From: Phycisphaerae bacterium
GTDB taxonomy: Bacteria; Planctomycetota; Phycisphaerae; UBA1845; Fen-1342
Reading direction: 5' to 3'
NCBI GenBank assembly: GCA_050115495.1
Contig: JASFQK010000008.1
Location: forward strand, 32,001-96,000
DNA length: 64,000 bases
In this document: positions 43,136 through 53,625 of the stretch, piece by piece
Layout of the letters: each line of letters opens with the position of its first letter
How positions within the stretch are numbered: the stretch's first letter is position 1
Notes under the pieces: generated by a model
Seen by the model: only the letters and a program-made list of their open reading frames with translations
Told to the model about the DNA's origin: nothing
The model's database searches: none
Position numbers and translations under genes: made by a program

Positions 43136-44572
43136 TTAGGAGGCCGCGGCGGCTTTGGCTTTGGGGGTTTGCGTGAGCAGCCATTCGTGCATTGAGCCGG
43201 CGGCTTTCTTGCCGTCGCCCATGGCCAGAATGACCGTCGCCGCGCCGCGGACAATGTCGCCGCCGGCGAAGACGCCGGGCATGCTCGTGGCGAGCTTGTC
43301 GTCGGCCTCGATATAGCCCCACTTGTTCGTCTTCAGTTCGGGGGTGGCGGCGGTCAGCAGGGGGTTGGCCTTGGTGCCGATCGCCGGGATGGCGACGTCG
43401 CAGGGGACGATGAACTCGGAGCCCTTGATGGGGACCGGCCGCCGGCGGCCGGAGTCGTCGGGTTCGCCGAGCTCCATCTGGATGCACTCGACGCCGGTGA
43501 CCCAACCGGATTCGTCGCCGACGTAGCGGATCGGGTTCGTCAGCAACTTGAAGATGATGCCCTCTTCCTCGGCGTGCTTCACCTCTTCGGCACGGGCGGG
43601 CATTTCGGTGCGGCTGCGGCGGTAGACGAGCGTGGCCGTCTCGGCGCCGAGGCGCTTGGCGGTGCGGACGGAGTCCATGGCCACGTTGCCGCCGCCGATG
43701 ACGACGGCGTTCTTCGGGCGGATGATGGGCGTGTCGAAGTCGGGGAACTCGTAGGCCCGCATGAGGTTCGAGCGGGTGAGGTACTCGTTCGCCGAGTAGA
43801 CGCCCTTGAGGTTCTCGCCGGGGATGTTCATGAAGACGGGCAGGCCGGCGCCGTTGGCGATGAAGAGGGCGTCGAAGCCCTCCTCGCCCAGCAGCTCCTG
43901 GACGGTGAACGTGCGGCCGACGACGACGTTGCAGATGATCTTGACGCCCATCTCGCGCAGGCGGCCGACCTCGGCGTCGATGATCTTGTTGGGCAGGCGG
44001 AACTCGGGGATGCCGTAGGTGAGCACGCCGCCGGGCTGATGCAGGGCCTCGAAGATGGTGACGTCGTGGCCCTTCTTGGCGAGCTCGCCGGCACAGGTCA
44101 GCCCCGCCGGTCCGGAGCCGACGACGGCGACGCGATAGCCGGTGGAGGCGGCGAGGATGGTTTTGATGTCGAGGTTTTCGCGGGCCCAGTCGGCAACGAA
44201 GCGCTCGAGGTGGCCGACGGCGACCGGCGTGCCCTTCTTGCCGCGGATGCAGACCTGCTCGCACTGCTCCTCCTGGGGGCAGACGCGGCCGGTGATGCCG
44301 GGCAGGGCGTTGGCGTCGAGCAGGATGCGGGCGGCACCTTCGAGGTTGCCCTCGGCGATCTGCTCGAGGAAGCCGGGGATGTCGATACCGACGGGGCAGC
44401 CGTAGACGCACTTGCCGTCCTTGCAACGGAGGCAGCGGTCCGCCTCGAGCTTGGCGATGCTCTGCTGGAAGCCGAGGTTGACTTCCTGGAAATCGCGGTT
44501 GCGCACCGTGGCTTCACGTTCGGGCATGTGCTGCCGCTCGATGGCCATCCGCTCTTTGGGGGTCATTGCCAT
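43136..44572 (-). CDS. nfnB: NfnB/SudA-like subunit (annotated in many genomes as homotetrameric NADPH glutamate synthase)
   Basis: EADRCLRC...C...CP, GRVCPQEEQCE, VVGSGPAGL, VIGGGNVAMD, GVFAGGDIVRG. Confidence 0.85.
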   Translation of the reverse strand: MAMTPKERMAIERQHMPEREATVRNRDFQEVNLGFQQSIAKLEADRCLRCKDGKCVYGCPVGIDIPGFLEQIAEGNLEGAARILLDANALPGITGRVCPQEEQCEQVCIRGKKGTPVAVGHLERFVADWARENLDIKTILAASTGYRVAVVGSGPAGLTCAGELAKKGHDVTIFEALHQPGGVLTYGIPEFRLPNKIIDAEVGRLREMGVKIICNVVVGRTFTVQELLGEEGFDALFIANGAGLPVFMNIPGENLKGVYSANEYLTRSNLMRAYEFPDFDTPIIRPKNAVVIGGGNVAMDSVRTAKRLGAETATLVYRRSRTEMPARAEEVKHAEEEGIIFKLLTNPIRYVGDESGWVTGVECIQMELGEPDDSGRRRPVPIKGSEFIVPCDVAIPAIGTKANPLLTAATPELKTNKWGYIEADDKLATSMPGVFAGGDIVRGAATVILAMGDGKKAAGSMHEWLLTQTPKAKAAAAS

Positions 44573-44611
44573 GATGGAGTCACCTGTTAGCGTTGACGGT
44601 CGTGGCCGTGG

Positions 44612-45466
44612 TCAGCGCCCCGCCGCGGCGCCGAGCCTGCACTTGTGCTCGGCGCGGTCGAGGGCTTCCTTCTCCTGCCTGCGGTAGGCGGTGAGACGGT
44701 CGGCCAACTCGGCGAAATTGACGAGGTGGCCGTCGAACTCGGGCCCGTCGACGCAGGCGTACTTGGTTTCGTCGCCGATCGTGACGCGACAGCCGCCGCA
44801 CATGCCGGTGCCGTCGATCATGATGGGGTTGAGCGAGACGATGGTTTTGATGCCGGACTCGCGGGTCAGGTCGCAGATGGCCCGCATCATGGGCACGGGG
44901 CCGGCACAGTAGATGATCTCGATGGGCCGCGATTTGTCGGCCATCATGTCGCGGAGCTTGTCGGCGACGGTGCCCTTGTAGCCGTAGCTGCCGTCGTCGG
45001 TGGTGGCGTAGACGACGTCGGAGACTTCGCGGAGCTCGTCTTCGAGGACGACCAGCTCCTTGGTGCGGCCGCCGGTGATGGAGGAGACGTAGCAGCCGAT
45101 CTCGCGGAGGGCGCGGGCCAGGGGGTAGATGACCGCGGTGCCGACGCCGCCGCCGACGAGGACGGCATGCCCGACCTTCTCGATCTCGGTGGGCTGGCCG
45201 AGGGGGCCCATGACGTCATTGATGAAATCGCCGGTGTTCTTGAGGAAGAGCTCGCGGGTGGTCTTGCCGATGGCCTTGACGATGAGCTCGATGGTGCCGG
45301 CTTGGGGGTCGGCGTGAGCCATGGTCAGGGGGATGCGCTCGCCGGTCTCGCCGAGGCGGATGATGACGAACTGGCCGGGCTTGCGGTGCTTGGCCACCAG
45401 GGGGGCATCGATACGGTACCATTTGACGTCAGAGGCCAGTTGCCTGGCGTCGAGGATCTTGAACAT
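44612..45466 (-). CDS. nfnA: NfnA/SudB-like FAD/[2Fe-2S] subunit
   Basis: PGQFVI, GERIPLT, GPLG, GGGVG, DGTGMCGGCRV...CVDGPEF. Confidence 0.88.
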   Translation of the reverse strand: MFKILDARQLASDVKWYRIDAPLVAKHRKPGQFVIIRLGETGERIPLTMAHADPQAGTIELIVKAIGKTTRELFLKNTGDFINDVMGPLGQPTEIEKVGHAVLVGGGVGTAVIYPLARALREIGCYVSSITGGRTKELVVLEDELREVSDVVYATTDDGSYGYKGTVADKLRDMMADKSRPIEIIYCAGPVPMMRAICDLTRESGIKTIVSLNPIMIDGTGMCGGCRVTIGDETKYACVDGPEFDGHLVNFAELADRLTAYRRQEKEALDRAEHKCRLGAAAGR

Positions 45467-45641
45467 AGGCTGCTCCCGGGCGGGCTGGGCACGGATCTCG
45501 TCAGGGCGCAGTCCAAGAGCCCGCCGACGGCGGAGGGTGAGCAAGAACCGTGCCACCGGGAATGGGGGTTTAGCGCCGGCGACCCCGGGATATCCGGCCT
45601 CGGCTGGGGGATTTTCCCCATCGGCGGTGGCCAGAATGCCG

Positions 45642-46769
45642 TTACGCGCGGAACGTGACCGAGACCGCTTGCAGGGGCTGCGGTCCGTCGGCGGCGAGTC
45701 GGTCGGCGAGGTCGCGGGCCTCCTCCGCCGACGTGCACAGCGTGAAGAACGCCGACCCGGAGCCGGTCATGCGGACGGGGCCGGGGCAGAGTCGGCGGAT
45801 GGCAGTTATCCAGACCCGCAGGTCGGGGTAGGTGGCCAGGGCGGGCTCTTCGAGGTCGTTGAAGAGGATCGCCGACAGGGCGGGCGGGTCGGCGAGGCGG
45901 GCGAGGACGTTGGCGAGGGGCGGGCGGGGCTCGGTCGGCGGGTCGCGGTCCCAGGCGGCATAGACCGCCGGCGTGCGACAGAATCCGCCACCGAGCAGCA
46001 GTATGGCGTGGGTGGTGAGGGGGTCGGCGGCTGGGGCGGCAGGTCGAAGAAGGGGACTGGCGCCGAGCCGGGGGGCCTCGCTGTGCTCAGTTGCCGCCGC
46101 GGGCGAGGTGCCTGTCCCCTCTTCCGACCGTTTGTCGGGGACGTCACGATCGCCGGCGCGCTGGCTTGGTTCGGCGGCGGGCACGCTTGCCGGCGGGCGC
46201 TCAAGCTGCTCGCCGGCAGCGGCAGGTCGGCTTCGGTCGGCGCCGGACTCACTGTCGGTCCGGTCGACGCCCGCGTCGCCTCGTGCCTGACCGGCGAAGA
46301 CGTCCTCGATCTGGTCGCCGCGGCCGCGGAGGATACAGAGCGGGCTGTGGAAGAAGAGTGGCACGTCCGAGCCGAGGGCGGCGCCGATGCGAGCGAGGTC
46401 GGCGACGCCGAGCGACCACAGGTCGTTGAGCAGGGCGAGCGTCGTGGCGGCGTTCGAGCTCCCGCCGCCGAGCCCCGCGCCGGCGGGGATCCGCTTGGCG
46501 AGTTCCAGGTGCACGCCGAAGTCGCTGCCCGTGGCCCGGGCCAGCTCATCGGCGGCCCGAAGGGCCAGGTTCCCCCGGTCGGTCGGCAGGCTCGGGTCGT
46601 CGCAGGAGAGCGTCCGGCGGCCGTCCGGAGCCGGGTGAGCGGTGATCGTGTCGTGCAGCGAGACCCGGGCGACGAGCGACTCGATCTCGTGAAACCCATC
46701 CGGCCGCAAACCAACGACGCGGAGCGTCAGATTGATCTTCGCCGGCGATGAGCGGGTGAGTGGGGGCAT
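45642..46769 (-). CDS. ispE: 4-diphosphocytidyl-2-C-methyl-D-erythritol kinase with a ~90-aa in-frame insertion
   Basis: PAKINLTL, GFHEIES, KRIPAGAGLGGGSSNAA, LGSDVP, NDLE, MTGSGS. Confidence 0.88.
   Translation of the reverse strand: MPPLTRSSPAKINLTLRVVGLRPDGFHEIESLVARVSLHDTITAHPAPDGRRTLSCDDPSLPTDRGNLALRAADELARATGSDFGVHLELAKRIPAGAGLGGGSSNAATTLALLNDLWSLGVADLARIGAALGSDVPLFFHSPLCILRGRGDQIEDVFAGQARGDAGVDRTDSESGADRSRPAAAGEQLERPPASVPAAEPSQRAGDRDVPDKRSEEGTGTSPAAATEHSEAPRLGASPLLRPAAPAADPLTTHAILLLGGGFCRTPAVYAAWDRDPPTEPRPPLANVLARLADPPALSAILFNDLEEPALATYPDLRVWITAIRRLCPGPVRMTGSGSAFFTLCTSAEEARDLADRLAADGPQPLQAVSVTFRA
46046..46124. repeat. Palindromic element inside ispE
   Basis: Terminal inverted repeats GAAGAAGGGGACTGGCGCC / GGTGCCTGTCCCCTCTTC. 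Confidence 0.65.
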
Positions 46770-46929
46770 GGGGGGATTATACGGGAAGTCACCGGCGCAG
46801 GCAGTTGGGATGCGGACGCGCGTGGACTCTCTTGCCGCGGCGTTGGCTGGGAGACTTGAGAAGTGCGGGGGGCCACCAGTCCTGAGCGATTCCGACGAGT
46901 GTCGGGCGACGTTCTCCGACGAAGTCACT

Positions 46930-47973
46930 TCACGCGGTCATGCGCGTGTCCCAGGCTTGCGCCAAGCGTCGCGGCTCGTTTCGCTTCTTCGAGGTAATCC
47001 ACCACTTGCCTCGGCGGGCAGACAATCCTCGGCTGGCCAGCGCGCGCATCACGTGTCGGTCACCGGCTTCAAGTAGTCGCTTGATGTGACGGGCGGGACC
47101 GAAATCGGCCTGCCGGGTGTAGTACATCCAGCCCGCCACCTGCGCTCGTTTGCGTGCAAGCCCTTCGAGGGAATCCGCGCTGACCACCTTCGCCCCACGG
47201 AGGTATGCTTCGGCCAGCGCAAGGGCCTTCGCGGTCTGCTCTGCCACGATCTTCACGCCGCGCCGGTTGTTCACGCGCAGGTTGTGCACTCGTTGCTCGC
47301 GGTGCTGGGCCGCGAATCCGTTCATCCGTAGCTTTCGGGCGTTGATCGACAGACCGTGACCTTCGATTTGCCTCCGCATCGCGTCGCCTGGCCATTCAGC
47401 TAGGCTCGGCGATTGGACCGAGATCACCATGTCGTCATAGGTGCGCGAGTACCGCGAACCGTTCCGCCCGCACGCGGCCGACAGCGCACGATCGGCGTCG
47501 TAAAGGAAGAGGTTCAGCGCATCAGAGCTTACCGGTGAACCTTGTGCCATACGACCACGCACGGTGCACAAGAATGACAGGAGCAGCGCCACGTCCGATC
47601 CAAAACCCATGCCCAGCAGTCGTTTCTTCAATTCAAGCTGGGAGATCGACGGGTAGCAGTCTCGTACGTCTCGTGTGACCACGTAGCGTCGGCCGAGGTG
47701 CCGCCGAGCACTCGTGAAGCATGATCGCGACTTTGCGCCGCCGTGGGCACATGGGTGGGGTGGAACGGCCCGAACCAGGAATCGGTGTAGCTTTCGGAGT
47801 ATCGACTTGGTCTGAGGCTTGGGTGCGTCGATCTCCCTGATCTTCCCGCACACGCGCTTCTGACGCGTCGGTAGAAACGCGGCGTCCATGTTCTTGGCTA
47901 GCGTCCACAGTCTCGCCTCGGACATGCCGACAGCTTTGGCTATGTCAGCGCCCCTCATCGCTTCTGGTTTCAT
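46930..47973 (-). CDS. Retron-like reverse transcriptase (divergent motifs)
   Basis: REIDAP, AHGG, SARRH, DVRDCYPSI, QGSPVS, YSRTYDDMVIS, IN..K, QRVHNLRVN; RT domain only, 347 aa. Confidence 0.88.
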   Translation of the reverse strand: MKPEAMRGADIAKAVGMSEARLWTLAKNMDAAFLPTRQKRVCGKIREIDAPKPQTKSILRKLHRFLVRAVPPHPCAHGGAKSRSCFTSARRHLGRRYVVTRDVRDCYPSISQLELKKRLLGMGFGSDVALLLSFLCTVRGRMAQGSPVSSDALNLFLYDADRALSAACGRNGSRYSRTYDDMVISVQSPSLAEWPGDAMRRQIEGHGLSINARKLRMNGFAAQHREQRVHNLRVNNRRGVKIVAEQTAKALALAEAYLRGAKVVSADSLEGLARKRAQVAGWMYYTRQADFGPARHIKRLLEAGDRHVMRALASRGLSARRGKWWITSKKRNEPRRLAQAWDTRMTA

Positions 47974-48295
47974 CCGTCTCCGTCTCCGACGACAACGTTG
48001 ATCTCAGCTCGTCCTCGACAGACAGCATCTTCTGAATCATTGCGACAAGTGCCTGGCTCACTTGGTCTTCGCTCTGCAAACGTCCGTTAGCAGGTTGCGC
48101 GAGAATGATGAGCACCTCCGGCGGAATCCGCAGGGCATTCGCGAGCCGTCGCAACACATCCAGTGACGGCTGCCGCTCGCCGTTTTCGACGAGGCTTAGA
48201 AACGGAATGCTGACGCCTGCATTGTCGGCGAGCGTAGACAGCCGCATCCCTTTTGCAGCCCGCACTATACGAATGGCCTTGCCAAGCTCTAGCAT
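47945..48295 (-). CDS. XRE/Cro-C1 family HTH protein, overlapping the RT start
   Basis: LGKAIRIVRAAKGM...LADNAGVS..FLSLVENGERQPSLDVLRRLANAL. Confidence 0.88.
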   Translation of the reverse strand: MLELGKAIRIVRAAKGMRLSTLADNAGVSIPFLSLVENGERQPSLDVLRRLANALRIPPEVLIILAQPANGRLQSEDQVSQALVAMIQKMLSVEDELRSTLSSETETDETRSDEGR

Positions 48296-48351
48296 TGGCA
48301 GTCCCTTGAGTTCGATCTGTGAGCACACGCGTTACCCATCGCGCGCTGATA

Positions 48352-48648
48352 TCAGGATGCGAGGAGTGTATCGACCTCTGCCTGGAGTTGATCGAACAGC
48401 AGTTCGAGCTTCTCCGCGAGGTCCATAGCCTCCGCCGCGGCCAGGGTCCGACCGTACCGACCGAGTTCTTCGATCAGCGTGGCCAGAGCGACCGCGTCAT
48501 CCATCGACCCCGAAGTCCCCGAGGCTCTCCGCCGCGCCATTTCTGACGAGAGGAGCTTGCGAATCCGGATGGCGCCATCTTCAACGACGCGAAAGAACTC
48601 GCAGGGCCTGGAGGAACTCCCCGACCACACCAACTCATGATGCTGCAT
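48352..48648 (-). CDS. Small alpha-helical protein (98 aa), candidate effector of the RT system
   Basis: ATG at 48648 preceded by GGAGG; amphipathic helical C-terminal half; co-oriented with HTH and RT. Confidence 0.6.
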   Translation of the reverse strand: MQHHELVWSGSSSRPCEFFRVVEDGAIRIRKLLSSEMARRRASGTSGSMDDAVALATLIEELGRYGRTLAAAEAMDLAEKLELLFDQLQAEVDTLLAS

Positions 48649-48649
48649 A

Positions 48650-48900
48650 CGCAGCCTCCATTGGGTTTGGCGGGAAGAGCATCGCTTCCCGTCGGGGTCC
48701 GACCAGCCGGGGACAGTCCCCGGACTCACGATCGGCAGGCCTGGCAGGGGCCAGGCTCCCGCGGCTAGCGCCGCTCCCGGACGAGCCGGGCAACCTCCCC
48801 GCGACACGAGATCCCGGGGCAGGTGAGGGGTTTGGAGGCTTGGTGCGATCGGTTATTCAGTTTTCAACTGGGCGCGGACAAGCCGGTGGCCCACTAAACT
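48650..48900 (-). ncRNA. Structured non-coding leader / candidate RT-associated ncRNA
   Basis: About 9 consecutive hairpins, most of them enclosed by the AGCCTCCA/TGGAGGCT inverted repeat, between the promoter and the small ORF. Confidence 0.6.
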
Positions 48901-48906
48901 GCGGGT

Positions 48907-48935
48907 ATTATACCACACAAGTAAAATGGAGTCAA
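48907..48935 (-). promoter_or_regulatory. Near-consensus sigma70 promoter driving the RT operon
   Basis: Minus strand TTGACT-N17-TATAAT, extended -10 TG, A/T-rich upstream tract. Confidence 0.8.
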
Positions 48936-49221
48936 CTTTGGTTAAATAATTTTCTCTTTTTCGGACGATCACCTCGCTGCACCGATTGCGCGGTGTGGTG
49001 GTCCTGCAGCGTACACGGCTGCGGGTCAACTCCCTCGCTTTCCGGCGTCAGGACGCCGTAGACGCATTCGTGCACGCGGCGGAGGAGAACTCGGGCCAAG
49101 GCGATCGCGGGTATGGCGCGGCGGGTGGGCTGCGGAGGGGGCACGGCCGGGCGGCAGCGTGTTGGCTGCGGCGCTGTTTTGCTTCTCAGCAGGCGAAAGG
49201 GGTACGTTGCGCCGCGGGGCG

Positions 49222-49788
49222 CTACAGCTCGTCGTCGGGTTGCAGGGGGGAGTGGTGCCAGGGCCAGTAGCTCATGACCGCTGCTTCGTCTTCGTCGAGG
49301 CTGGCGTGGTAGTGATGTGCGTGCGGGCAGGGGAAGCGGAATTCCTGTTGCGTGAAGCCGCGCAGGCGGAGGGTTGCCTCGAACTCGTCCAGCGGGCCGT
49401 AGGCGTAGATCACGTTGTGCTGGTCGTAGACGAGCAGGCCGGGGCCGCTGAAGGACTCCACCCAGACGTGGTGCCGACCGTCCTGCTCGAAGAACGTGCG
49501 GTATGTTTCGAGGAAGCCGCGGACCGCCGCCGGCGAGATGTCGGCGGCCGCGTATCGTCCTGGTGGCCGTTCCTCCCGGCGGGGAGTGAGCAGGACGTAC
49601 AGGACGCCGAACGGGCCAGGGAGCAGGTCGAGCAGGGCCAGGATCAGGTTGATGTGGTCGCGCGACGGACCGATAACGAGGCGCATGGGCCCCGTGGTCT
49701 GCTCGCGATACCAGAGGTCGCCGTATTCGTGCGGCTGCGGCGGCTGGCGCCAGCGGGGGCTGGACAGTTTCGGCAATCTGATCTTCAC
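49222..49788 (-). CDS. Hypothetical protein
   Basis: Clean ORF with GC-biased codons; motifs FFEQDGRH, LVYDQHN, PHAHHYH. Confidence 0.7.
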   Translation of the reverse strand: MKIRLPKLSSPRWRQPPQPHEYGDLWYREQTTGPMRLVIGPSRDHINLILALLDLLPGPFGVLYVLLTPRREERPPGRYAAADISPAAVRGFLETYRTFFEQDGRHHVWVESFSGPGLLVYDQHNVIYAYGPLDEFEATLRLRGFTQQEFRFPCPHAHHYHASLDEDEAAVMSYWPWHHSPLQPDDEL

Positions 49789-49960
49789 GGTTCCACCGGT
49801 ATAGCAGCCGCAGGGCGAGCCTCGCCCGGCGATCGTTCGATTGTCAGTTCGCGGTCACGCCGCGTCGATGGCGTTTCTGGGCGTTCGATTGTGCGGCGGG
49901 TGAGACCCGCCCTACGTGCGGTGTGATCGGCGGGGTGGGAGTGGCGACGTGGCGTGGTGT

Positions 49961-50722
49961 TCATGGCCGGGGCTCGGTGCTGCTGAGACGCAGGCGGAGG
50001 AGGAGGTCGTTGAGGGCGGGGGCGGCGGTGGGGTCGGGTGGTAGGGGGCTGGTGGCGGAGGCGGCTTCGAGGGTGGCGGTCAGGCGGCGGTATTCGTGCT
50101 CGTGGAAGGCGAGATCGGTGTCGGCCAGGGGGTCGTGCTCGCCGCCGGCGGTCTTGCGGGCGATGAGGTCGTCGACGTGCGGGAGGCGGTGGGCCTCGTT
50201 CAGACGGGGGAGGTTCGCCTCGATCTCGCCGGTACGCATTAGGTGCAGGCCGGCCAGCAGCACGCGGTACGTGTAGAGCAGCGGCTTGAGGCGGCGGTGC
50301 TGCTCGACGAGCCGCCACTGCGTGCGGGCGAAGCCGAGGTAATGCAGCGCGTGCTGCTTCGTGACGCAGCCGCGGGCGATGGCCTTCAACTCGTCGTGGA
50401 CGGGCGTCGTGTGCAACACGAGCGGCGAGTAGAGCTGCTCGAGCACGTACCCGTTCGGGCGGAGCAGCAGGCGGAAGAACTTGCGGACGTCGTGCGTGAC
50501 GAGGTCGAGATCGACGCCGGCGGGGCCCGTGGTGCACTCGATCGTCTCGGGCGGCGGCGTTAGACCGATAACTTCGCGGAGCGGCAGCACGTGGACGCCG
50601 CGAAGGTCGTAGTCGGAGTCCGCCGACGGGAAGCCGTAAAGGTGGGCGCCGCTGATGGTGACGAAGAGGAGCGGGTAGGGCTGGGCGGCGATCACGCTTT
50701 GAAGTTGTGGCGGGGCCGGCAT
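49961..50722 (-). CDS. DNA polymerase beta-superfamily nucleotidyltransferase (RlaP/YcgL family)
   Basis: SGAHLYGFPSADSDYDLRGVH, NGYVLEQL, KPLLYTYRVLL. Confidence 0.85.
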   Translation of the reverse strand: MPAPPQLQSVIAAQPYPLLFVTISGAHLYGFPSADSDYDLRGVHVLPLREVIGLTPPPETIECTTGPAGVDLDLVTHDVRKFFRLLLRPNGYVLEQLYSPLVLHTTPVHDELKAIARGCVTKQHALHYLGFARTQWRLVEQHRRLKPLLYTYRVLLAGLHLMRTGEIEANLPRLNEAHRLPHVDDLIARKTAGGEHDPLADTDLAFHEHEYRRLTATLEAASATSPLPPDPTAAPALNDLLLRLRLSSTEPRP

Positions 50723-50973
50723 GTGGATGAGTCCTTGGGGGCGTTTCGCTCGATCACGCTGGCGTTTCTCGGCGTTCGGTCGTGCGGCGGGTGGAACCCG
50801 GCCTACGCGGCTCGATTGTCAGTTCGCGCTCACATCCCGTTCATGGCGTTTCTCGGCGTTCGATTGTGCGGCGGGTGAAACCCGCCCTACCCGGTTGTGG
50901 TTGCCGGCTGTGTGCGGCGCCTTCGGCTCGGAGGCAGTCCGCTTCTTCAACCGCGTGATCGGTCGCGCTTGCG

Positions 50974-51750
50974 TTAGTCAAGGTCGCTGGCGATATTCGA
51001 GACCAATCGGCACTTCTCGCAGCGGAAGTCATAGCGGTCGAGCCACTGCTCGTCGAGCTTCCAGGCTCCGCCGCAGTCCGGACAGCGACGCTGAAGCTCG
51101 GCCCGGCGGCTGCGCCCGTAGTAACGCATCAGGTCGTAATACGTCGGCACGCCGGTGTTGGCTTCGATTAGTCGGCAGACGTCGCGGCCCTCCTCCGCCA
51201 GTTCGCTGTGCGGTTCCGACAACTGTCGATAGGCCAACCGTTCCCCGGCGCCGCTGGCGATCCAGATTGAGTCGAGGTCGCGGTAGTGGTAGGCCCAGAA
51301 TCGCAGGTCCTCGAAGTTGCCGTACTCGCTCGTCGGCGGGATGCGGTACAGCGGCACGACGCCGCCGCATCCGCCGCAACGCAGCGGCGTCTCGCACGAG
51401 AGGAAGTCCGTGGAGAGGATCAGCGCCGGCGGCTTGCGGCAGGTGCAGACCGGGTCCGACTCGGGGTCAGGGCCGAGCACGCGTGTCGAACGCCATTCGA
51501 CGCCGGCTTTGCGCAGAGCGCGTATGGCATCGCGAACCCGCTTGCTGCGATGTTTGGGGTGCAGCGAGTCGGCGTCCGGCAACGACACGTACCAGCGCCA
51601 GCCGCCGCGGATCTCCACAACGGGGGCGTCCTGCTCGATCAACTGCCCGTTTCGCCGGAGTGAGAACAACAACTCGTCGATCGCCCAGCGCACCTCTTCC
51701 GGGTCCGCCTTTCGTTTCTGCCAGGTGAAGGTCAGTTCCGCCGTGTGCAT
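50974..51750 (-). CDS. Zn-ribbon-containing, possibly nucleic-acid-binding protein (DUF2310-like)
   Basis: LRRNGQ, CGGCGGVVPLY, PTYYDL, CPDCGGAW, FRCEKCRLVSN. Confidence 0.75.
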   Translation of the reverse strand: MHTAELTFTWQKRKADPEEVRWAIDELLFSLRRNGQLIEQDAPVVEIRGGWRWYVSLPDADSLHPKHRSKRVRDAIRALRKAGVEWRSTRVLGPDPESDPVCTCRKPPALILSTDFLSCETPLRCGGCGGVVPLYRIPPTSEYGNFEDLRFWAYHYRDLDSIWIASGAGERLAYRQLSEPHSELAEEGRDVCRLIEANTGVPTYYDLMRYYGRSRRAELQRRCPDCGGAWKLDEQWLDRYDFRCEKCRLVSNIASDLD

Positions 51751-51809
51751 GCTGGGCCTCCCTGGGCGACCGCGGCCCTGTTTCCGCAGGGTCCGTCGAA
51801 TCGCCGGTG

Positions 51810-52637
51810 CTACATATTGTCGTTTCCGAACGTCCGCTGGAACAGGGCCGGGACGATTTCGCCGGCGGTGCCGCGCAACCACACGTCACCGCCACCGGGT
51901 TCGTCCGGATCGATCACGATCAGCTTGGCGCCGGCGGCGCGGGCCCTGGCGGGCAACATGGCCGCGGGCAGGACGACGCCGGACGTGCCGATGATCAGCA
52001 TCACGTCGCAGCGCCGGCTGTCGGACAGGGCTTGGCTCCAGTCCGGCTCGGTCAGCGGCTCGCCGAAAAGCACGGCGCTCGGACGCACCAACCCGCGCCA
52101 GGAGAGACCGGCCAGCGGGCGGATCGCCAGGGCCACACGCAGCAGCGCCATCCAGCTCAGCTCGGCGGCCTCCAGGCGGCGGACGATCCTGGCCAGACCG
52201 GCCCGGGTTAGCAGCCGCACGAAACGCTTGCGCAGCGTAACGACCCGCAGCAGCGAGCCGTGGATCTCGCGGACGGTGGTGCTCCCGGCTTCCTGATGCA
52301 GGCCGTCGACGTTCTGCGTGACCACGGTCACGTTGACGTGCTTCTCGGCGTGGGCGATGGCCTGGTGGGCGGCGTTGGGCTTCGCCTGCGCCAGCGGCCG
52401 CAGCAGCCGGGCCAGGAAGTGGGCGAGTCGCCGCGGACGCCACAGGGCCGTTCGCACCAACCCGGTCCACGTCGCGAACTCGTCGGGCGAGAACTCTGTC
52501 CAGAGTCCGCCGGCAGTGCGGAAGGTGTCGATGCCGCATTCGGCGGAGACGCCCGCGCCGGTGAAGACGACCAGACGCTCGGCGGAGCGCAGGTAGTCGG
52601 CGGCGAGATCCAGATTGTCGCCGGCTGGCGTTATGTC
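51810..52637 (-). CDS. Sir2/CobB-family NAD-dependent deacylase lacking the Zn-binding cysteines (start codon unclear)
   Basis: FTGAGVSAECGIDTFR, PNAAH, TQNVDGLH, EIHGS, VLFGE, IIGTSGVV. Confidence 0.8.
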   Translation of the reverse strand, partial: DITPAGDNLDLAADYLRSAERLVVFTGAGVSAECGIDTFRTAGGLWTEFSPDEFATWTGLVRTALWRPRRLAHFLARLLRPLAQAKPNAAHQAIAHAEKHVNVTVVTQNVDGLHQEAGSTTVREIHGSLLRVVTLRKRFVRLLTRAGLARIVRRLEAAELSWMALLRVALAIRPLAGLSWRGLVRPSAVLFGEPLTEPDWSQALSDSRRCDVMLIIGTSGVVLPAAMLPARARAAGAKLIVIDPDEPGGGDVWLRGTAGEIVPALFQRTFGNDNM

Positions 52638-52686
52638 TCGCGTACACTCGTTGGCTGGCGTGATATGGCACGCTCTCCGGTCGCGG

Positions 52687-53625
52687 TCACGTGATGCAAC
52701 TCCGCCGGGCTTTGATGAGGAAGGCGTTGACGCGGGTGTAGTCGGGGCGGTCCGGTAATGTTGTTCGTTCGTACGCCGCATCGAATCGACGATGTAGCTC
52801 CAGCCGCCAGGCGTCGACGTCGGGCCAGGGGACCTCGCCGCGGCGGATGGCCAGCAGGCGGTCGCGATGCTCGTCGACGGCCACGGGGACCGTCGCTTCG
52901 CGCAGGGCGACGATTCCCGCCAGCAGCAGCCGGATCAGGTGCATGGCGTGCTTCCATTTGATGTCGCGCTGGCTGTTGAGGCGGGCGGAGAGCTTGCGGA
53001 ACTGGCTGAGCACGTAGCCGCCGTAGGTCTGGTAGATGAGCTTCGAGAGGAACGCGGTGCGCAAGTCGAGCAGTTCGCGGGCCAGCGGCGTGGCATGCTC
53101 GACGAGCGGCGTGTAGAGGCACTCGAGGACGTTCGGGTTGGCCTTCAGGGCGAGCGTGAGGAACTTCTGCAATTCCCAGTAGCACTCCTGCGACTGGGCG
53201 TTTTCGAGCTGCTCCGGTACGCCGTAGAGCGACCAGTGCATCTCCGCCGGCGGGAGGTAGACGCCGCGGCGGTCGACGTCGGAGCCTTCGTGGTCGAGGC
53301 CATACGCCCGCGAGCCGACCACGCAGCGGTAGATGACGCAGTCGAGCAGGTCGTAGTCGTCGAGGACGTTGGCGGCGGACCAGATCTGTTCGCGCAATAA
53401 CTGCTTGAGGACGGCGAACTGGTTGCGGCGCAGGGTGGCCTCGCTGCCGTCGGCGAAGCGGACGCGGTAGGAGTGCGTGTGGTCCGCCGGCGACTTGACG
53501 ATGAGGCCGACCGCGCCGGGCGGATGCTGCACGTCGCTGCCGGCGGCCTGGACGCCGATGCGGCTGACGACCTGCGTCCCGGGCGGGACGATGGCGTTCG
53601 GGTCGTAAGCGATCCTGCGGGGCAA
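52687..53625 (-). CDS. RlaP/YcgL-family nucleotidyltransferase with N-terminal SH3-like extension
   Basis: VGSRAYGL...SDVDRRGVY, KANPNVLE, KHAMHLIRLL. Confidence 0.85.
   Translation of the reverse strand: MPRRIAYDPNAIVPPGTQVVSRIGVQAAGSDVQHPPGAVGLIVKSPADHTHSYRVRFADGSEATLRRNQFAVLKQLLREQIWSAANVLDDYDLLDCVIYRCVVGSRAYGLDHEGSDVDRRGVYLPPAEMHWSLYGVPEQLENAQSQECYWELQKFLTLALKANPNVLECLYTPLVEHATPLARELLDLRTAFLSKLIYQTYGGYVLSQFRKLSARLNSQRDIKWKHAMHLIRLLLAGIVALREATVPVAVDEHRDRLLAIRRGEVPWPDVDAWRLELHRRFDAAYERTTLPDRPDYTRVNAFLIKARRSCIT

Follow-up and report, generated by a model that had tools for sequence, protein, structure and literature searches.

A compact operon on the minus strand of a Phycisphaerae contig is very probably a complete Type VI retron; as such it would be an anti-phage module of the abortive-infection type, hosted by a Phycisphaerae-like planctomycete. 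The operon lies within a stretch of 64,000 nt (hereafter the window; GenBank assembly GCA_050115495.1, contig JASFQK010000008.1, positions 32,001 to 96,000) and is composed of a structured leader RNA and genes for a small protein (SP), a helix-turn-helix (HTH) protein of the XRE/Cro-C1 family and a reverse transcriptase (RT), all behind a single promoter. The anatomy of the locus, the family memberships of its proteins, the conservation and covariation of its RNA, a leader–SP RNA in an environmental library and a predicted interface between HTH and SP were obtained in this work. The kind of system, a Type VI retron, is known and recently described; what is new is the branch, which is divergent and mostly planctomycete. 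The parts are as follows, with coordinates given as positions in the window and all retron parts on its minus strand.

48907..48935, minus strand: sigma-70 promoter (TTGACT, 17-nt spacer, TATAAT, TG extended −10; predicted transcription start near 48900)
48649..48900, minus strand: non-coding part of the candidate hybrid RNA, an msr-msd-like leader (5' hairpin, conserved motif, basal stem around six hairpins)
about 48858..48873, minus strand: conserved 5' motif (here GCGCCCAGUUGAAAACUG; family consensus G-N-UC-UUUGA(C/A)AAU)
48832..48839, minus strand: basal stem 5' arm (a1-like), anti-Shine-Dalgarno (AGCCUCCA; pairs with 48660-48653 in the minimum free energy (MFE) and centroid structures)
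48725..48735, minus strand: IR1, leader-side arm of a long-range pairing (CCGAUCGUGAG; conserved box between hairpins P4 and P5)
48653..48660, minus strand: basal stem 3' arm (a2-like) (UGGAGGCU; contains the Shine-Dalgarno (SD) sequence GGAGG of the small gene)
48352..48648, minus strand: SP, candidate toxic effector (98 aa; ATG 48648, stop 48354-48352)
48313..48323, minus strand: IR2 (CUCACAGAUCG; conserved box, found 15-45 nt past the SP stop in related loci; pairs with IR1)
47945..48295, minus strand: XRE/Cro-C1 HTH protein, candidate repressor and antitoxin (116 aa; HTH domain followed by a C-terminal helix)
46930..47973, minus strand: retron-type RT (347 aa; catalytic box TYDD; C-terminal extension of ~45-65 aa)

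The original prediction for this DNA had described four co-oriented parts behind a single near-perfect sigma70 promoter, namely a hairpin-rich leader of ~250 nt, a helical open reading frame (ORF) of 98 aa, an XRE HTH gene overlapping the RT gene by 29 bp and a stand-alone RT of 347 aa, and all of these were found in place. The promoter (48935-48907) agrees with 11 of 12 consensus bases and is the sole such site between 46000 and 50000, where a consensus scan returned one promoter-like site against 0.4 expected from shuffles; in 13 of 18 related loci, by the author's count, a TTGAC-type −35 hexamer aligns upstream. The leader extends from ~48900 to 48649, and the ORF of the HTH gene (47945-48328) runs past the RT start at 47973. 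It had also been stated that an HTH partner together with a small protein marks Type VI retrons, which is correct and fits the published architecture (Mestre et al. 2020; Zhang et al. 2025; Garcia-Rodriguez et al. 2026). Two interpretations had been offered. That of a divergent Type VI-like retron stands, on the HTH_VI and RT_VI matches and the order ncRNA-SP-HTH-RT (ncRNA, non-coding RNA), while that of a new defence-associated RT system is unneeded.

The reverse transcriptase, the HTH protein and the small protein

The RT was recognised by Pfam as RVT_1 (E = 1e-9), and its residues D102, D180, D181 and K214 are invariant in all 36 aligned sequences, which argues for an active RT polymerase. 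The best PADLOC model was RT_VI with 129.5 bits, followed by RT_III-A with 115.4 bits, and all 25 matches listed were to retron RT models. RT_VI was likewise the best model in 32 of 35 homologues, the exceptions being P0037 (tied with II-A), P0062 (XII) and the N-terminally short P0083 (III-A). Relatives numbered 114 at E <= 0.001 in a 90%-clustered collection and at least 83 representatives at E <= 1e-30 in a 50%-clustered library, and those with names belong to Planctomycetota (Pirellulales, Phycisphaerae, Botrimarina, Aeoliella). A tblastn search of the RT against plasmids gave no close match, only distant retron RTs at 22-30% identity. Compared with VI-typed references, the RTs of the clade carry ~45-65 extra C-terminal residues with a conserved KWW..RNEP.RLA..W and a 3-residue insert after motif D. 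Judged by its sequences, the RT clade is a separate, mostly planctomycete lineage.

The HTH gene likely starts at ATG 48295, behind the SD sequence AAGGGA. Its product matches Pfam HTH_3 (E = 3e-12) and the PADLOC family HTH_VI; the latter match covers profile positions 2-89 of 92 at 66.6 bits, against 27.9 bits for the next family. HTH_VI was the top PADLOC match in 17 of 17 related loci (56.5-75.4 bits).

The SP start lies 6 nt downstream of a GGAGG SD sequence. In the protein collection the entry is likewise of 98 aa, and its family has 21 members there, none of them named by any source. The AlphaFold2 model of SP is a three-helix bundle with helices at residues 15-43, 50-66 and 71-97 (predicted local distance difference test (pLDDT) 85.3, predicted template modelling score (pTM) 0.75). 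No Pfam or PADLOC family was matched by SP, and a Foldseek search of the model against the PDB gave 0 matches at E <= 0.001 and generic helical bundles only. An SP homologue is nonetheless present in all 35 related loci with enough upstream DNA; every start that could be placed is preceded by a GGAGG- or AGGAG-type SD sequence, and the proteins are of about 94-99 aa. By analogy with the effectors of Retron-Vpa2 (Zhang et al. 2025) and Retron-Sen3 (Garcia-Rodriguez et al. 2026), SP is a candidate toxin.

A model of the complex between HTH and SP, for which each protein was supplied as an 18-row alignment, scored 0.80, and the best of three controls scored 0.00; the mark is reached by 116 of 157 solved complexes and by 2 of 215 mismatched pairs. 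The runs agreed in at least 95% of contacts, with a partner pLDDT of at least 78. The predicted interface consists of the C-terminal helix of HTH and its residues 10-15, and the modelling supports binding of SP by HTH.

The leader RNA

With an MFE of −121.7 kcal/mol, the fold of the 266-nt leader was equalled in stability by 1 of 200 dinucleotide shuffles (z = −2.18). Taken from the conserved motif to the ATG, the window leader gave an MFE z of −2.78, and across the family, after removal of 6 duplicates, the same stretch had a negative z in each of the 28 unique leaders, with values below −2 in 24 and a mean of −3.24. An Rfam search of 46000-50000 in evalue mode returned chance-level matches only, and neither a retron msr nor a group II intron family was among them.

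In 34 of 34 loci the small ORF is preceded, at a distance of 174-290 nt, by a near-invariant 5' motif, with two weak matches among them (E = 1.8 and 8.2); just upstream of the motif an invariant G is present in related loci. In several loci the motif is complementary to the SD region of the HTH gene, which is suggestive of a pairing; any function of the motif is putative. A 5' hairpin separates the motif from the transcription start in some loci, and elsewhere the promoter abuts the motif. In seven leaders (L012, L014, L030, L032, L034, L040 and L002) a TTGACA...TATA-type promoter stands directly upstream of the motif, so that the RNA would start at the motif and would be made without the 5' hairpin seen in the window.

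Individual MFE folds of the leaders show a basal stem around six hairpins. In the window the 3' arm of this stem includes the SD sequence of SP; in other loci it lies 15-35 nt upstream of a separate SD sequence. The two arms change together, as in UGGACUUCA/UGAAGUCCA, GCCGCAGAU/GUCUGCGGU and AUCCCCAG/UUGGGGAU. When the whole leader, its 3' domain and the 5' hairpin region were aligned with MAFFT and folded with RNAalifold, consensus structure was slight or absent, as the hairpins do not fall into register in sequence alignments. For this reason, alignment-free tests of cognate against non-cognate arms were used in place of per-column covariation statistics and a covariance model. Runs of RNAduplex over long windows, and scanning of the complete leader against the region after SP, proved too noisy; position-restricted scans took their place. 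The best-helix score of the basal stem was 19.04 for cognate arms and 17.21 for non-cognate arms (28 loci, permutation p = 0.0007). Directly after the 5' arm, where a branching G might be sought, no conserved G was found in the loci compared.

Two kinds of short repeat were seen in the leaders. In the window the 8-mer CCAAACCC occurs twice, at ~48835-48828 and 48670-48663 on the minus strand, just inside each arm of the basal stem, and its position is not conserved in the other 27 leaders. In L005, L024, L012 and L034 an 8-mer from the 3' arm of hairpin P4 (AGGGTGGT, TACGGTGG or TGGTGCAC) recurs ~60-75 nt further downstream, within or close to hairpin P6; such a repeat might correspond to the direct repeats of Vpa2 and is not general in the family.

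Long-range pairing and an environmental transcript

The conserved boxes IR1, within the leader, and IR2, after the SP stop, pair with one another, and the SP coding sequence is thereby bracketed. The pairing is bipartite with compensatory changes in both halves, the first half occurring as CAGUC/GACUG, CGGUC/GACCG, UGGUC/GACCA and CACUUUG/CAAAGUG, and the second as AGGAC/GUCCU, AGGGAC/GUCCCU and AAGAAAC/GUUUCUU. When both regions were set by position alone, the cognate duplexes of the 28 loci had a mean of −16.40 kcal/mol against −14.36 kcal/mol for non-cognate ones, and 0 of 20000 permutations were as low. Folding of the 605-nt stretch from 48900 to 48296 gave z = −4.29 (20 shuffles). In this fold the region after the ORF is paired with the 5' end, and a basal stem lengthened as far as codons 6-10 of the small ORF buries both SD and AUG.

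Three contigs identical to the window were present in RNA run X2, a public wetland metatranscriptome from a study other than that of the probable source metagenome X1. The first (550 nt, depth 35.1) covers 48337-48886, that is, leader and small ORF, beginning 14 nt below the predicted transcription start and ending 15 nt past the stop of the small ORF, before IR2. The second (476 nt, depth 3.1) covers 47824-48299 with HTH and the 5' end of RT, and the third (156 nt, depth 2.9) covers 46867-47022. No contig covers 46400-46866, 47023-47823, 48300-48336 or 48887-49400, and these parts count as no evidence; a DNA run, X3, held only small pieces of the locus. The leader–SP contig thus has ~11 times the depth of the HTH–RT contig, a ratio which loses weight through contig depth being one figure per contig and through the DNA that an RNA library can contain. 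Uniform carry-over of DNA, however, would not yield an 11-fold step within one operon. The contigs show neither RNA ends nor strand. Their pattern is as expected of a stable hybrid RNA, resembles the enrichment seen by RNA-seq in Vpa2 and Sen3, and suggests such an RNA here.

Related loci and distribution

A genome scan restricted to one genome per species yielded 18 loci, 15 of which are Planctomycetota by record title, with the other three on short contigs or in unclassified bins (Rhodobacteraceae, Paceibacterota and 'bacterium'). Upstream DNA is available for 17 of the genome loci, and in all 17 RT is preceded by an SP homologue and HTH, with order and spacing unchanged. A metagenome scan added 23 loci, 18 of which were matched by the SP profile; the remaining five have <=455 nt upstream of RT, too short to hold the gene. 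All 18 metagenome loci with at least ~550 nt upstream keep the order SP-HTH-RT. Examination of synteny, as proposed in the original prediction, therefore gave SP-HTH-RT in 35 of 35 loci with enough upstream DNA and the leader motif in 34 of 34. Two complete SP-HTH-RT loci, L006 on a 2.5-kb contig and L008 on a 4.9-kb contig, are binned with metagenome-assembled genomes of Rhodobacteraceae and Candidatus Paceibacterota respectively, which could be due to mis-binning or horizontal transfer.

Within its own genome (5.97 Mb, 85 contigs, 92% complete) the RT is the single RT_VI-like gene besides one weak match. The latter (L043; contig C34, 41954-42670, plus strand; RT_VI E = 5e-4, 20.4 bits) lies inside a 600-aa frame and is probably of a different RT class. 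No orthologue was present in the six same-genus genomes searched (6/6), nor was one found in 40 relatives, where RTs at 27-33% identity were the only ones found, in 5 genomes. G+C content at third codon positions (GC3) is 0.66-0.73 in the three retron genes and 0.83-0.93 in adjacent genes. The sporadic distribution and atypical GC3 together fit a horizontally acquired defence gene set. The host itself is probably a planctomycete, as had been supposed, because the named relatives of the neighbouring GltD-like protein (9 NCBI-named among 120 relatives listed, 73-81% identity) are all Phycisphaerae, Phycisphaerales or Planctomycetota.

Strength of the Type VI assignment

The RT was placed in a tree among typed retron RTs, for which a further 53 distant RT representatives were typed with PADLOC to provide references. 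The tree, made by a quick method with Shimodaira–Hasegawa-like approximate likelihood ratio test (SH-aLRT) support, had 75 rows, consisting of the window RT, 21 clade members chosen from the 114, 9 intermediates and 44 typed references picked by similarity to the query (17 VI, 8 III-A, 7 II-A, 6 XIII, 3 XI and 3 'other'; no Type IV or V). The clade and the 9 intermediates form one starred branch (99) apart from all typed references, and 16 of the VI-typed references form a group of their own (90). The tree separated the clade firmly and joined it to Type VI only weakly, and the epithet 'divergent' in the original prediction was well chosen.

A number of points weigh against the assignment. In the best tree, the clade, the intermediates and all 17 VI references fall on one side of a branch at a support of 57 only, in a reference set without Types IV and V. 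The margin by which RT_VI leads is small (3-15 bits), and in 3 of 35 homologues another retron model scores slightly better. The catalytic box has lost the first Tyr of YxDD, being TYDD here and xADD in relatives as opposed to Y/F-x-DD in VI-typed references, and the clade has its own motif, VH[NS] (VHN here), at the position where most retron RTs in the alignment read VTG. VTG is a motif typical of retron RTs. Five VI-typed references, however, read VTG or CTG (3/5), VNG (1) and VHD (1, P0250) at this position, so VTG is not universal in Type VI. Regarding the RNA, the basal stem is without the SD sequence in many related loci, and a search of the leaders for 7-8-nt direct repeats resembling the Vpa2 pair found none conserved in position. 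The cognate partner was best or tied-best in its row in 2 of 28 loci only in the basal-stem test, and best in 2 of 28 only in the IR1-IR2 test; the covariation signal is therefore statistical and not one that holds locus by locus. At 98 aa, SP exceeds the 55-79 aa of the small proteins published for Type VI, and no sequence similarity between it and a named family was detected. Three neighbouring genes scanned (a 188-aa ORF, RlaP and DUF2310) had no PADLOC match, and a SIR2 neighbour was identified by Pfam only. Finally, no msDNA (multicopy single-stranded DNA), branching G, toxicity or defence has been observed.

One tentative reading of these differences is that the clade forms a distinct retron subtype and not a peripheral branch of Type VI, set apart by the C-terminal domain and VHN of its RT and by a six-hairpin ncRNA whose 5' motif may pair with the ribosome-binding site (RBS) of HTH. 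If so, one RNA would gate translation of toxin and antitoxin both, and the environmental RNA would be the first sign of a hybrid RNA accumulating in nature, without a laboratory host or overexpression.

It is unlikely that the divergence goes further and the locus represents a separate, undescribed retron type, sister to Type VI, with an RT that would make no canonical msDNA, or another product, and would act mainly as an RNA-binding scaffold for an HTH–SP toxin–antitoxin pair. The invariance of D102, D180, D181 and K214 across 36 sequences argues instead for an active polymerase, the HTH protein is a clear HTH_VI member and the RNA architecture matches that of published Type VI retrons, even though the clade with its intermediates is a starred branch (99) apart from all typed references and scores 104-156 bits on PADLOC RT_VI against 166-241 for VI-typed references. 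The RT differences (VHN, the lost Tyr and the extension with KWW..RNEP.RLA..W) point towards a separate type, as does the report that the Sen3 HTH–SP module works without RT or ncRNA (bioRxiv 10.64898/2026.04.27.721009); the presence of VHD (P0250) and VNG among VI-typed references removes part of that force.

A non-defence element, whether a selfish toxin–antitoxin addiction module or a regulatory RT–HTH operon sharing ancestry with retrons, is improbable. Such an element would suit the neighbours scanned, among which no phage, integrase or defence gene was recognised, and HTH–SP binding is the only function supported by modelling; yet all experimentally tested systems of the same architecture, Vpa2 and Sen3, defend against phage, and a sporadic distribution with atypical GC3 is typical of defence genes. 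Moreover, catalytic residues and RNA are kept across at least 83 representative clusters, which indicates selection on the whole system and not on the toxin–antitoxin pair alone. Another class of RT (group II intron, diversity-generating retroelement, or Abi/DRT/UG) with coincidental neighbours is scarcely credible, for although Pfam sees only generic RVT_1, all 25 PADLOC matches listed are retron RT models, no group II intron or further RNA family was recognised by Rfam in 46000-50000, synteny with the partner genes holds in 35 of 35 informative loci and the relatives found on plasmids are annotated as retron RTs.

Proposed mechanism

With the locus taken as a Type VI retron, synthesis of complementary DNA, toxicity of SP, a trigger and defence are proposed by analogy with Retron-Vpa2 and Retron-Sen3. 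The single promoter would give a hybrid RNA of ~590 nt, whose 5' multi-hairpin ncRNA would serve as the RT template and whose 3' part would encode SP. In the resting state the RBS of SP would be locked in the basal stem, and IR1-IR2 would tie the leader to the region just past the SP stop. HTH, translated together with RT from a far scarcer downstream message, would bind SP as its antitoxin and, as in Vpa2 and Sen3, would probably restrain RT within a complex of RT, HTH and RNA. A phage cue, which in the studied homologues is inhibition of RecBCD or phage recombination proteins, would then raise or stabilise the reverse-transcribed single-stranded DNA (ssDNA), or titrate HTH. SP would thereby be made or freed, and the infected cell stopped. 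The basal stem containing the SD sequence favours translational control as in Vpa2, and the confident HTH–SP model favours post-translational control as in Sen3; the two may operate together.

Genomic surroundings

Downstream of the retron lie ispE and then a GltD-like/FNR-like pair. Upstream of the promoter, at 49222-52781 on the minus strand, is a co-oriented series of an unknown 188-aa ORF, an RlaP-family nucleotidyltransferase, a DUF2310 zinc-ribbon protein and a SIR2-family protein. Given that the three of these scanned with PADLOC had no match, no defence island is evident. An empty site in relatives was not found, ispE of 5 relatives lacking both the retron and the upstream genes of the window within 1.5-kb flanks.

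The neighbouring ispE gene (GHMP kinase; 45642-46772, minus strand) was compared with that of four same-genus relatives and one same-family relative. It matches IspE of these five only over residues 2-158 and about 250-370, which reveals a low-complexity insert of ~95 aa, rich in Ala, Pro, Arg and Glu, that those relatives lack. The listed ispE ORF begins 52 codons too early, at a point that would adjoin the RT stop. On both strands of 43500-46800 there are long overlapping ORFs of low GC3 (including 43574-44590, 44645-45658 and 45321-46751, all plus strand), which are shadow frames of a high-GC genome and not genes.

Significance

Type VI retrons were mechanistically opaque until two preprints of 2025-2026, both on systems from Gammaproteobacteria. 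The two differ in control logic, with msDNA-dependent translation described for Vpa2 and post-translational HTH–SP control for Sen3. The present locus and its ~35 informative relatives extend the hybrid-RNA architecture to a deep, mostly planctomycete lineage, and core features become separable from lineage-specific ones. The shared core consists of the basal stem containing the RBS, the IR1-IR2 bracket, the overlapping HTH and RT genes and the three-helix fold of SP; the RT tail and the family to which SP belongs are lineage-specific. The family alignment offers natural compensatory variants of the RNA switch, and the environmental transcript suggests that the hybrid RNA is stable in its native setting. 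For annotation, a name becomes available for 'hypothetical' proteins of 98 aa and for RTs labelled 'reverse transcriptase domain-containing protein'.

Comparison with published Type VI retrons

Type VI was defined by a retron RT of RT clade 3 together with a Cro/C1 HTH protein of 91-110 aa (cluster 2_1) (Mestre et al. 2020, PMC7736814). The same source lists 158 Type VI entries, reports no Type VI ncRNA identified by 2020 and describes a frequent accessory protein of 75-79 aa (clusters 2075, 2760 and 3272), predicted to be a three-helix bundle. SP has this predicted fold and is longer, at 98 aa. In the SPIRE survey Type VI is listed chiefly for Bacteroidota, Bacillota and Pseudomonadota, with low scores noted for many Type VI references. 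No description of a planctomycete Type VI lineage was found in the available retron literature on Planctomycetota, the 158 Type VI entries of Mestre et al. standing outside this comparison.

Retron-Vpa2 of Vibrio parahaemolyticus (Zhang et al., bioRxiv 10.1101/2025.10.22.683967) has RBS and AUG in stems, and its 3' end pairs back to the leader. Its RT, HTH and RNA form a complex in which HTH represses reverse transcription, and phage-induced msDNA is required for translation of the toxin. Both Vpa2 and the present locus are single operons ordered ncRNA, small protein, HTH and RT, and in both the leader–SP RNA is more abundant than that of HTH and RT, here by environmental contig depth. The differences are of size and detail. 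The SP of Vpa2 has 55 aa (according to the Sen3 preprint) against 98 aa here, and its hybrid RNA is of ~470 nt against a candidate of ~590 nt. The RT belongs to a different clade here, with TYDD in place of YADD and an extra C-terminal segment, and the leader forms six short hairpins, with no long single msd-like hairpin seen and no conserved pair of 7-nt direct repeats found.

Retron-Sen3 of Salmonella enterica (cl2075 lineage; Garcia-Rodriguez et al., bioRxiv 10.64898/2026.04.27.721009) has an ncRNA located no more than ~280 nt from the start of SP. This ncRNA has terminal inverted repeats, an RBS in the basal stem and a stem-loop upstream of the 5' repeat, and IR1-IR2 pairing brackets the SP gene of Sen3. 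The retron makes ssDNA constitutively; HTH is the antitoxin of SP, RecBCD inhibition is the trigger, and the HTH–SP module works without RT or ncRNA. Common to Sen3 and the present locus are an ncRNA no more than ~280 nt from the SP start, the terminal repeats, the RBS in the basal stem, the upstream stem-loop, IR1-IR2, an HTH gene that overlaps or abuts RT, and a helical SP. The antitoxin–toxin pairing demonstrated for Sen3 is supported here by a complex model. The SP of Sen3 is of another family and shorter, the hosts of its lineage are Beta- and Gammaproteobacteria as opposed to a planctomycete, and the 5' stem-loop is missing in the part of the present family where the promoter abuts the motif.

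The locus also resembles modules of an XRE antitoxin and a small toxin in that a small HTH protein is predicted to bind and neutralise a small helical protein encoded directly upstream. It differs from them in that the pair is embedded in a system of RT and ncRNA, with the toxin message placed inside a structured RNA. At the level of sequence and predicted structure, the locus reproduces each anatomical feature published for the RNA and operon of Vpa2 and Sen3.

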